From Escherichia phage vB_Eco-B1.1: DNA of 64,000 bases. Shown one piece after another: positions 9,380 through 11,329 of the stretch. Made by a program: the position numbers and the translations under genes. Numbering within the stretch: position 1 is the stretch's first letter; each line of letters starts with the position of its first letter. The notes beneath the pieces are model-generated. The model was not told the DNA's origin. It saw only the letters and a list, made by a program, of their open reading frames with translations, and did no database searches. The stretch lies in sequence record ON871820, one strand, 5' to 3'.

Positions 9380-10411
9380 ATGTCATCAATACCTTGGATT
9401 GATAATGAGTTTGCGTATCGTGCATTAGCTCATTTACCTAAATTCACACAAGTAAATAATAGTTCAACTTTTAAATTACGGTTTAGATGCCCTGTTTGTG
9501 GAGATTCAAAAACCGACCAGAATAAAGCTCGTGGATGGTATTATGGTGATAATAATAATGAAGGAAATATTCATTGTTATAACTGTAACTATCATGCACC
9601 AATCGGAATATATTTAAAGGAGTTTGAACCTGATTTATATCGTGAGTATATCTTTGAAATAAGAAAAGAAAAAGGTAAAAGTCGTCCAGTAGAAAAACCT
9701 AAAGAACTTTCTAAACAACCTGAGAAGAAAATAATTAAATCTCTTCCGTCATGTGTTAGATTAGATAAACTGACGGAAGACCATCCAATTATAAAATATG
9801 TAAAAGCTCGTTGTATTCCAAAGGATAAATGGAAATATCTTTGGTTTACAACTGAATGGCCTAAATTAGTTAATAGCATAGCACCAGGAACATATAAAAA
9901 GGAAATACCTGAGCCTCGTCTTGTTATTCCAATTTATAATGCTAATGGAAAAGCTGAGTCTTTTCAAGGACGTGCATTAAAGAAAGATGCTCCTCAAAAA
10001 TATATCACCATCAAAGCTTATCCTGAGGCAACAAAAATCTATGGAGTCGAACGAGTTAAAGATGGTGATGTATATGTTCTAGAAGGACCTATAGATTCAC
10101 TTTTTATTGAAAATGGTATAGCTATTACGGGTGGTCAATTAGACCTAGAAATTGTTCCATTTAAAGATAGACGTGTATGGGTTTTAGATAATGAACCTCG
10201 TCATCCTGACACTATTAAACGAATGACTAAATTGGTTGATGCAGGAGAAAGGGTTATGTTTTGGGACAAATCTCCCTGGAAATCAAAAGATGTTAATGAT
10301 ATGATTAGAAAGGAAGGTGCAACCCCTGAACAAATTATGGAATATATGAAAAATAATATTGCACAGGGGTTGATGGCTAAAATGCGGTTATCTAAATATG
10401 CTAAGATTTAA
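9380..10411 (+). CDS. 61: DNA primase (343 aa)
   Basis: N-terminal zinc ribbon CPVCG...CYNCNYH; TOPRIM motifs (VLEGPIDSLF, VLDNEPRHPD). Confidence 0.9.
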   Translation: MSSIPWIDNEFAYRALAHLPKFTQVNNSSTFKLRFRCPVCGDSKTDQNKARGWYYGDNNNEGNIHCYNCNYHAPIGIYLKEFEPDLYREYIFEIRKEKGKSRPVEKPKELSKQPEKKIIKSLPSCVRLDKLTEDHPIIKYVKARCIPKDKWKYLWFTTEWPKLVNSIAPGTYKKEIPEPRLVIPIYNANGKAESFQGRALKKDAPQKYITIKAYPEATKIYGVERVKDGDVYVLEGPIDSLFIENGIAITGGQLDLEIVPFKDRRVWVLDNEPRHPDTIKRMTKLVDAGERVMFWDKSPWKSKDVNDMIRKEGATPEQIMEYMKNNIAQGLMAKMRLSKYAKI

Positions 10412-10608
10412 ATTAACCCAACCAAAGCAAATGCTAAATCTACGAATGTATCGAGAGTAATTACTGGAATATTAACGCCATGAGCAATAGCAATTGGTGA
10501 TAAAACAAAATTCCAGAGTAAAATTCCTATCATAGCAGAAATAGTAAAAGCTATACGTTTTTTATTACCTTTGATGGCATTAACAAGTGCCATTAATTTT
10601 TGTACCAT
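10408..10608 (-). CDS. small hydrophobic membrane protein (66 aa), antisense to the early gene array
   Basis: Strong RBS TAAGGAGGACAT before the ATG on the - strand; two hydrophobic segments; 3' end overlaps the primase stop by 4 nt. Confidence 0.6.
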   Translation of the reverse strand: MVQKLMALVNAIKGNKKRIAFTISAMIGILLWNFVLSPIAIAHGVNIPVITLDTFVDLAFALVGLI

Positions 10609-10621
10609 ATGTCCTCCTTAT

Positions 10622-10645
10622 TGCTTTATATATTTATTGTATAAT
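10622..10645 (+). promoter_or_regulatory. middle-type promoter (MotA box TGCTTTA plus -10 TATAAT)
   Basis: TGCTTTA at 10622-10628, 11 bp spacer, TATAAT at 10640-10645, no -35 hexamer; upstream of the HNH ORF. Confidence 0.5.
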
Positions 10646-10678
10646 TAATCTACTAATCCATGAATTGAAAGGATATAT

Positions 10679-11329
10679 GTGAATTACCAAAAAATTTACT
10701 CGGCTTTAATTACAAAAGCTAAATGCCGGCATCTTGGCGGATATAAAGAACGCCATCATATAATTCCTAGATGTATGGGAGGAACAGATGGCAAAAACAA
10801 TCTTGTTGAGTTAACTGCGCGTGAGCATTTTATAGCTCATAGATTATTAACTAAAATATATCCAGATGTGAGAGGATTGCATTATGCTGTAAATTTAATG
10901 CGATATAATAAAGGTGTTAAATTAACAAGTAGATTAATAGAAACCCTTAAAATCCAAAACTCCGTTCTTTTCTCGGGTGAAAATAATCCTAGATATGGCA
11001 AGCCGTCATGGATTAAAGGCAAAAAGACCCCAGAAGAAACTAAAGCCAAAATGCGTCTAGCTCATAAAGGTAAAATTATATCCGATGAAGCCAAGGCTAA
11101 TATGAGTAAAGCCCGAAAAGGAAGATTTAGCGGTAAAAATTCACCTCGATATGGTTTACCAAATCCTAGGCGAGGAGAAATATGGAATAGTTATGATGCG
11201 CTTTATGAATTATGGGTTTATAATAATAGACCTAAACGCACAAAATTTAATAAAATAGCTGTCAAGGCAGGTTATCCTAATATCTGCTATAGACATATGA
11301 TAGAAAACTTCATAAGAAAGGAAAAATAA
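10679..11329 (+). CDS. HNH homing endonuclease-like protein (Mob-type), 216 aa
   Basis: HNH motif (HHIIPRCMGGTDGKNNLVELTAREHFIAH); two NUMOD3-like repeats (GENNPRYGKPSW, GKNSPRYGLPN); GTG start. Confidence 0.7.
   Translation: MNYQKIYSALITKAKCRHLGGYKERHHIIPRCMGGTDGKNNLVELTAREHFIAHRLLTKIYPDVRGLHYAVNLMRYNKGVKLTSRLIETLKIQNSVLFSGENNPRYGKPSWIKGKKTPEETKAKMRLAHKGKIISDEAKANMSKARKGRFSGKNSPRYGLPNPRRGEIWNSYDALYELWVYNNRPKRTKFNKIAVKAGYPNICYRHMIENFIRKEK

Follow-up and report, generated by a model that had tools for sequence, protein, structure and literature searches.

A conserved small gene for a predicted membrane protein and a homing endonuclease gene, probably independent neighbours between genes 61 and 56 of a T4-like phage

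The locus considered here raises the question of whether two adjoining, divergently transcribed genes of a T4-like phage form one mobile unit that took the place of a methyltransferase gene, or merely share a neighbourhood. In T4, dam lies between gene 61 and gene 56. In the 64,000-nucleotide stretch of Escherichia phage vB_Eco-B1.1 (ON871820) that we analysed, hereafter the window, which belongs to a T4-like phage of the genus Tequatrovirus, dam is absent and the interval holds a 66-aa open reading frame (ORF) on the minus strand and a 216-aa ORF on the plus strand. A first-pass annotation, made from the letters alone, had described a hydrophobic protein gene convergent to 61 with a strong ribosome-binding site (RBS), an HNH/NUMOD3 endonuclease gene behind a MotA-box middle promoter, and the missing dam, all of which held up; it had further proposed that the pair may be a mobile cassette that displaced dam, or that the small protein is linked to the endonuclease, and neither proposal did. 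We consider it probable that the interval contains two independent elements sharing a compact bidirectional promoter region, and that the absence of dam is a separate polymorphism. The two genes are as follows.

Positions 10408–10608, minus strand: conserved small membrane-protein gene (predicted), 66 aa, RB32ORF030w family, PHROG 2024, convergent to gene 61.
Positions 10679–11329, plus strand: free-standing HNH homing endonuclease gene, 216 aa, T4 Mob family, GTG start, with an N-terminal HNH nuclease domain and a C-terminal NUMOD3 DNA-binding region.

The distribution of the two genes carries the argument. A tblastn search with the small ORF finds matches in 692 phage records, with coverage of 80% or more in 686, and with 90–100% identity within Tequatrovirus and about 50% in Mosigvirus; the Jiaodavirus-type homologue adds 169 further records, giving about 860 in all. 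Homologues occur in Mosig-, Gapriver-, Jiaoda-, Gelderland-, Moon- and Kanagawavirus, where they always adjoin the primase gene and are convergent to it. The small ORF is a position-fixed, vertically inherited gene confined to the Tevenvirinae, where it spans at least eight genera. For the endonuclease gene the count is just 58, out of roughly 900 related records, at 87–100% nucleotide identity, its carriers being Tequatrovirus, Mosigvirus (SSE1, AV111), Jiaodavirus (about 22 Klebsiella phages) and Gaprivervirus (VR5, ESCO10), and these numbers reject co-inheritance. Moreover, whether or not dam and the homing endonuclease gene (HEG) are there, the small ORF is, and each of the four combinations is represented:

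dam present, HEG absent: T4.
dam present, HEG present: ELT1, IME537.
dam absent, HEG absent: RB32-like phages, vB_SsoM_113, F13076, Mosigvirus ST0.
dam absent, HEG present: this window.

Comparison across genera places the edges of the mobile segment. When the window is compared with Mosigvirus SSE1 in a sliding alignment, the endonuclease gene is 97–100% identical, whereas the primase gene, the small ORF and the rest of 56 are 50–80% identical. SSE1 and its endonuclease-free sister ST0 are in turn 97–100% identical on both sides of a clean insertion. Comparison of the junctions with vB_SsoM_113 and T4 likewise shows a clean insertion. The identity breakpoints fall at about 10674 and 11362, which leaves the small ORF outside the segment. 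The near-identity of the endonuclease gene in different genera implies recent transfer.

The small gene is also intact in T4 itself, at NC_000866 17738–17938 (+), within the 310-bp gap between dam and 61, where it is preceded by GATAAATA and AAAGGAGG; it is unannotated there, while the record of vB_SsoM_113 calls the gene at the same position RB32ORF030w. Its omission from the T4 reference annotation and its likeness to a late membrane protein make the small ORF noteworthy: omics studies that rely on RefSeq NC_000866 miss a conserved gene that is apparently expressed late. Antisense genes had been remarked on as rare in T-even early regions, and all annotated T4 genes from position 1 to 77,337 indeed lie on the other strand. 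Up to 77 kb on the T4 map, the small ORF would be the sole clockwise gene. A literature search on an antisense gene between dam and 61, unannotated T4 ORFs, ribosome profiling and RB32ORF030w found nothing relevant.

Two signals precede the small ORF on its own strand.

Positions 10613–10620, minus strand: Shine-Dalgarno sequence TAAGGAGG (plus-strand CCTCCTTA), 4 nt from the ATG, read from the sequence.
Positions 10631–10638, minus strand: late-promoter-like box AATAAATA, an A(-13) variant of TATAAATA, 22 nt upstream of the ATG.

T4 late promoters are exactly TATAAATA in 32 of 50 listed cases, and an A at -13, found in nine of the 50, is the commonest natural variant (PMC2988020); one of the two other exceptions is a TA-to-AT change, and late transcripts can have either polarity (Geiduschek and Kassavetis, PMC2988020). 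A gp55-dependent late gene would have a TATAAATA-type box at about -10, with no -35 element, shortly upstream, and the box before the small ORF fits this description. In seven genera such a box, NATAAATA, TATAAATA (Kanagawavirus) or ATTAAATA (Gelderland- and Moonvirus), occurs 13–22 nt before the ATG and is followed by GGAGG, although the upstream DNA is otherwise unalignable. GGAGG or GGAG precedes the ATG in eight of the nine copies examined from seven genera, the ninth (VR25b) having GGTGG. The motif ATAAATA is scarce in the window, with six and nine copies per strand (nine on the strand of the small ORF) against 21–25 expected from base composition; over both strands this amounts to 15 copies against about 47 expected, an under-representation of about 2.5-fold. 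The remaining copies precede soc, gene 34, gene 36, holin t and I-TevI, and at least six lie 18–34 nt upstream of known late-expressed genes or of the small ORF (examples at 11895+, 35850-, 40667-, 45737- and 51637+). This depletion, together with the position of the copies before late genes, makes ATAAATA a usable late-promoter predictor in this genome. From the box itself, its conservation, its depletion elsewhere and its copies before late genes we infer late, gp55-dependent transcription of the small ORF: it would be transcribed late by gp55-RNA polymerase starting from AATAAATA, and would be translated efficiently from its perfect Shine-Dalgarno sequence. Two observations concern other copies of the small gene. 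Gaprivervirus carries two tandem paralogues (phage VR25, excerpt 2495–2901), and Kanagawavirus (IME523, excerpt 1501–1701) has only the second paralogue type (MGTLFYQI...), unannotated and following a perfect TATAAATA.

What the small protein might do can be approached from its predicted structure. Five lysines or arginines fall in its N-terminal 18 residues, and residues ~17–66 are continuously hydrophobic. An AlphaFold2 model built on a shallow alignment (mean predicted local distance difference test score 74.5) has a helix at 2–13, a transmembrane (TM) helix of 27 residues at 16–42, a loop at 43–51 (HGVNIPVIT) and a final helix at 52–63, so that hydropathy and the model concur on a single-pass inner-membrane protein as the prediction. 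By the positive-inside rule its N-terminus should be cytoplasmic. In the resulting model the basic N-terminus would stay on the cytoplasmic side of the inner membrane, a single TM helix (~16–42) carrying the invariant residues W32, N33 and P38 would cross it, and a short C-terminal helix, acidic and hydrophobic, would lie at the periplasmic face. Besides the initiator methionine, the residues invariant across eight divergent members are these three with G44, P48 and G64.

Databases add the family but no function. The small protein is a plain member of PHROG 2024 (E = 8e-31), a family with no assigned function that is missing from the T4 reference annotation. A profile search collects 121 protein clusters, all of 62–69 aa, all on contigs of T4-like phages and all named 'hypothetical', and a cluster look-up likewise returns only the name 'hypothetical protein'. 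Against 1.84 billion representative proteins, a profile search gives only six matches, all from the protein's own family, and Foldseek with the AlphaFold2 model against BFVD returns family members only. One database homologue (MVFVNVIKGNKKCIVFIIFVMVGILFWNF...) deviates solely by C-to-T-type changes (A>V, S>F/L, P>L, T>I, H>Y), a pattern that suggests assembled reads after bisulfite or deaminase conversion rather than a natural variant.

Most small membrane proteins that phages express late have to do with lysis, and the expression signals of this gene are like those of t; for these two reasons our best guess, held with low confidence, is an accessory protein of the late phase, concerned with the envelope or with lysis timing. 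It is possible, though we put it forward only tentatively, that this is a true late inner-membrane protein missed in the T4 annotation with a distinct role in the late infected envelope, where it might tune holin/antiholin timing or anchor a membrane-associated assembly step. If so, a knockout would alter lysis timing, burst size or host range.

A more specific proposal, that the protein is itself a holin, a pinholin or an antiholin-like lysis regulator, seems to us unlikely. The resemblance to T4 holin t is real: both genes have the AATAAATA box (at ~35850 for t), a short leader and a strong Shine-Dalgarno sequence, and both encode small membrane proteins with a late-type promoter. T4 lysis genes are scattered, so location is uninformative, and one UniProt entry (OE5505) is named 'Holin'. 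That label, however, is automatic and unreviewed, and all other members are 'hypothetical'; there is no match to holin families in Pfam, NCBIfam or PHROG, or to any annotated PHROG. The protein also departs from a holin in its predicted architecture, with one TM helix and no charged cytoplasmic C-terminus, the chain ending in ...ALVGLI, hydrophobic and uncharged. T4 already has a full set of lysis and lysis-inhibition genes (t, rI, rIII and the spanins), and T (218 aa), RI and RIII differ from the small protein in showing no similarity to it in sequence or fold.

The identity of its neighbour is much clearer. Two stretches of the 216-aa protein score 29.5 bits with Pfam NUMOD3 (cut-off 20.4), and its HH...N...H motif ERHHIIPRCMGGTDGKNNLVELTAREH aligns with ETHHIIPRCMGGSDDKENLVELTAREH of T4 MobE, as expected for a beta-beta-alpha-metal core. 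The GTG start is backed by the N-terminal alignment to MobE, both proteins beginning MNYQKIY. BLASTP against T4 proteins finds 63% identity to the nuclease domain of MobE across 82 aligned positions (E = 2e-32) and 34% identity to MobD from end to end (E = 2e-33), as well as matches to MobB (E = 1e-20) and MobC (E = 5e-17), and residues 126–211 show 32% similarity to the C-terminus of SegA. The protein belongs to PHROG 655, 'homing endonuclease' (E = 1e-59), and in PADLOC it meets only the generic 'HEase' model (E = 3e-6). With its HNH motif, NUMOD-type C-terminal modules, sporadic intergenic occurrence alongside empty sites, and horizontal spread with co-conversion, the 216-aa ORF is, judged by its sequence, a free-standing, mobile HNH homing endonuclease of the Mob family. 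It is a fresh, uncharacterised member of a well-known class, and GenBank records already label it 'homing endonuclease'.

The insertion lies in the upstream region of gene 56, where the following features were read.

Positions 10619–10645, plus strand: MotA-dependent middle promoter (predicted), with MotA box TATTGCTTTA at 10619–10628, an 11-bp spacer and the -10 element TATAAT at 10640–10645.
Positions 10667–10673, plus strand: GAAAGGA, the resident RBS of gene 56, now serving the endonuclease gene, and left 7-bp direct repeat (from alignments of junctions with and without the HEG).
Positions 11316–11330, plus strand: GAAAGGAAAAATAAC, right 7-bp repeat and rebuilt RBS for 56, overlapping the endonuclease 3' end and identical in 8/8 loci that carry the HEG.
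Positions 11331–11362, plus strand: first ~32 nt of gene 56 in the recoded, HEG-associated form ATGCCACATTTCAACGAATGTAGTCAACTGAT, the putative co-conversion tract and cleavage-immune version of the target.
Positions 11331–11849, plus strand: gene 56 (dCTPase/dUTPase; Pfam dUTPase_2, same annotation in related records), presumed homing target gene.

The inserted segment comprises 649 bp (10674–11322) with the GAAAGGA direct repeat on both flanks, and it separates the RBS of 56 from its ATG. Empty genomes read ...TTGAAAGGAAAAATA-ATGGCN YAY TTT AAY GAA TGT..., and occupied genomes read ...TTGAAAGGA|TATATGTG...(endonuclease gene)...AGAAAGGA|AAAATAAC-ATGCCA CAT TTC AAC GAA TGT AGT CAA CTG AT.... 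Because it is inserted at this point, the endonuclease gene uses the resident MotA-dependent promoter and RBS of 56. The MotA consensus is (a/t)(a/t)(a/t)TGCTTtA, 12±1 bp upstream of a sigma-70 -10 element (PMC2988021), and the box here scores 10/10. By alignment to the T4 dam-56 intergenic region, this promoter corresponds to the one that T4 has in front of 56 (the oriA promoter), and the record of phage fPS-2 likewise predicts a middle promoter here. It would now drive both the endonuclease gene and 56. An RNA structure sequestering the endonuclease RBS is not supported (z = -1.1). The MotA-dependent promoter is thought to prime oriA (PMC3016281), and the T4 record puts oriA (NC_000866 16763) 22 nt inside 56, within the stretch that is recoded here (window ~11331–11362), so the endonuclease gene is inserted between the oriA-priming promoter and the oriA point.

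The association of the endonuclease gene with a recoded start of 56 reads as a classic homing signature. The recoded start is found in 8/8 loci with the HEG, from three genera, and the naive start ATGGCNYAYTTTAAY... in 14/15 loci lacking it; between SSE1 and ST0, identity falls to 72% only in this stretch. We infer that the enzyme recognises the naive region from RBS to start codon of 56 and that the recoded version resists it, which is the allele pattern that such a specificity would be expected to leave. In a mixed infection, the endonuclease would nick or cut HEG-free genomes at the highly conserved GAAAGGAAAAATA-ATGGCNYAYTTTAAYGAATGT, and repair would copy the endonuclease gene together with ~32 nt of the recoded, cleavage-resistant 5' end of gene 56. 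The one exception among the HEG-free loci is Salmonella phage F13076 (excerpt ~1700–1760), which has no endonuclease gene and yet has the recoded 56 start and AAC before the ATG. Its junction is the exact product expected of a deletion between the GAAAGGA repeats and would represent a precise-loss footprint. The locus thus offers a clean natural series of naive empty site, occupied site and precise-loss footprint, and this series and the predicted target GAAAGGAAAAATA-ATGGCNYAYTTTAAY could be used to study the homing-endonuclease life cycle and marker exclusion in T-even phages.

Losses of this kind could be taken to mean that the endonuclease gene has been domesticated, or is decaying, into an inactive relic that no longer moves, and several T4 mob genes are in fact defective (mobA, I-TevIII). 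Besides F13076, which lost the gene, SSE1 has a 1-nt deletion in the A-run before the endonuclease stop that fuses the gene in frame to 56, giving a 390-aa ORF (...IRKENNMPHFNEC...; excerpt 2564–3736) that reflects a genuine fusion protein or else an error of sequencing. The ORF is nonetheless full-length in 55 of the 58 records, at 90–100% identity and with HH...N...H intact, and its near-identity across genera speaks for recent movement; we therefore regard a relic as quite unlikely.

Compared with known T4 elements, the endonuclease gene most resembles the mob and seg genes in its way of life. In T4, Mob and Seg genes are typically expressed from promoters borrowed from upstream (PMC2988022); this gene likewise relies on a middle promoter in front of it, and it overlaps or rebuilds the translation signals of its neighbour. 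Like MobE and MobD, the protein has an N-terminal nuclease domain and its gene is intergenic and free-standing. It differs from them in site, theirs being nrdA/nrdB or nrdC.11/mobD.1 and this one lying between the RBS and ATG of 56; it differs from MobE also in a C-terminal region with NUMOD3 and a SegA-like C-terminus, and T4 has no copy at this locus. SegF, a GIY-YIG enzyme encoded between 56 and soc, cleaves gene 56 (PMC2988022, Table 1). The endonuclease described here is alike in being free-standing, adjacent to 56 and apparently directed at 56 with co-conversion of adjacent 56 sequence, but it is of the HNH type and lies on the other side of the gene. It would be a second selfish element, of the HNH type, aimed at gene 56 from the side opposite SegF.

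Beyond adjacency, nothing ties the small protein to this element, and the small ORF is present with or without it. A role for the small protein as a membrane-acting superinfection-exclusion or toxin-like factor, as the first-pass annotation had suggested, can be considered without such a link, given that it is a small hydrophobic protein predicted for the inner membrane, that T-even phages encode Imm and Sp, and that sp lies ~2 kb upstream. Imm and Sp, however, are early genes on the early strand, whereas the small gene has a late-type promoter and lies on the opposite strand. It has no match in PADLOC and no antitoxin-like partner, and its strict vertical conservation is unlike the patchy distribution usual for accessory exclusion genes. 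We judge this function improbable.

It could be asked whether the small ORF is translated at all, as one further feature overlaps it.

Positions 10571–10603, plus strand: intrinsic-terminator-like hairpin (10571–10596) and T-run for the gene 61 transcript, from a terminator scan, antisense within codons 6–12 of the small ORF.

The hairpin folds with -12.4 kcal/mol (z = -2.9), and the record of phage fPS-2 annotates a terminator at the same place. Because this hairpin is antisense within codons 6–12, the small gene occupies the 3' untranslated region (UTR) of the gene 61 message. The conservation of the DNA might then reflect its use as 3' UTR and terminator by gene 61, or as the template of a late antisense RNA, and a late minus-strand transcript would run antisense into 61, with no strong minus-strand terminator found after the ORF in the terminator scan. 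The substitution pattern makes this very improbable. By the Nei-Gojobori method, the ratio of nonsynonymous to synonymous substitution rates (dN/dS) is 0.12–0.15 within Tequatrovirus and likewise within Mosigvirus, and between genera ~50% amino-acid identity is kept even though synonymous sites are saturated. The ATG, a perfect Shine-Dalgarno sequence and a length of 62–69 aa are kept in at least eight genera, and the hairpin is not obvious outside Tequatrovirus. These patterns of change mark the small ORF as a genuine gene that purifying selection maintains.

Together with the middle promoter, the late box gives the interval its compactness: AATAAATA sits inside the spacer of the plus-strand promoter, so that ~27 bp hold two promoters facing in opposite directions, middle on the plus strand and late on the minus strand. 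In the 70-bp intergenic region of the window, the MotA box, the late box and the -10 element are interleaved.

There remains the absence of dam. With T4 Dam as query, tblastn finds no homologue in the 61-56 interval, in the 64-kb window or in positions 39000–138999 of IME340, the closest complete genome, while the same search recovers the Dam of ELT1 at 97% identity as a positive control. A synthetic empty junction, in which the small ORF, the intergenic region and 56 are joined without the endonuclease gene, is found, over 80% or more of its length, in 323 records, and many of these matches are a single uninterrupted piece at ~95% identity (pSs-1, ECO4, EC121, KIT06, vB_SsoM_113). Tequatroviruses with neither dam nor the endonuclease gene are therefore common, and Mosigvirus, Gaprivervirus and Gelderlandvirus also lack dam at the 61-56 position. 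The nucleotide at which the endonuclease gene is inserted is identical whether dam is present (ELT1, IME537) or absent. Because empty sites are common and the insertion point is the same with or without dam, dam behaves as an independent presence/absence polymorphism; and because the empty sites share the intergenic sequence, the endonuclease gene entered a dam-less background, or at least did not displace dam. Loss of dam by a simple repeat deletion in a T4-like ancestor was considered and rejected, as no single deletion yields the order of elements in the 70-bp intergenic region of the window from the two T4 intergenic regions. The idea that the small ORF and the endonuclease gene are one mobile cassette that displaced dam, which their adjacency, their divergent orientation and the lack of dam from its T4 position had recommended, is scarcely credible, since the distribution already refutes it, the small ORF stands beside dam in T4 and with both dam and the HEG in ELT1 and IME537, the breakpoints exclude it from the mobile segment, and sites lacking both dam and the HEG share the intergenic sequence.

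Several points weigh against parts of the explanation that we prefer, namely two independent elements and a separate dam polymorphism. For the endonuclease, Pfam HNH gives 14.7 bits, below its cut-off of 21.4, a sequence search of the PDB returns no solved relative, and the target site is deduced from allele association. The late-promoter call for the small ORF derives solely from motif, position and conservation, and in T4 the box before the ORF, GATAAATA, is a rarer variant. Within Tequatrovirus, some of the conservation of the small ORF at the nucleotide level could come from its overlap with the terminator, and the small protein has no homology to characterised families in Pfam, NCBIfam, PADLOC, PHROG or BFVD. 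Finally, the dam event in Tequatrovirus may have been either a gain or a loss.

Conceptually, no new kind of system is involved, and the finding is mostly an ordinary one: a conserved small gene and a selfish endonuclease gene, unrelated, side by side. The surrounding layout is shared with other phages. The 1.3 kb around the two genes is 98.8% identical to phage vB_EcoM_IME340 and 96–98% identical to about 28 further records of the same layout. The gene order in the window is sp, 61.2, 61.1, 61, the 66-aa ORF (-), the 216-aa ORF, 56 and soc, and that of T4 is 61, an unannotated 310-bp gap, dam, 56, segF and soc. Two further genes of this order have the following positions.

Positions 9380–10411, plus strand: gene 61 (DNA primase), from the ORF list, 95–100% identical in nucleotide sequence to T4 gene 61 and annotated as primase in IME340 and T4.
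Positions 11932–12177: soc, from the ORF list.

The stop codons of gene 61 and the small ORF overlap inside the palindrome ATTTAAAT. On the far side of gene 56, segF, the GIY-YIG gene that T4 has between 56 and soc, is absent from the window (11849–11932), and soc directly follows 56. Gene 56 of the window is only 65–91% identical to T4 gene 56, compared with 95–100% for the primase gene; this divergence fits a hotspot of endonuclease-driven exchange. IME537 carries an additional hypothetical ORF of 186 aa between the small gene and dam (locus excerpt 1641–2201), and because of this extra ORF the 61-56 interval can be described as an insertion hotspot that has received dam, the 186-aa ORF and the endonuclease gene.

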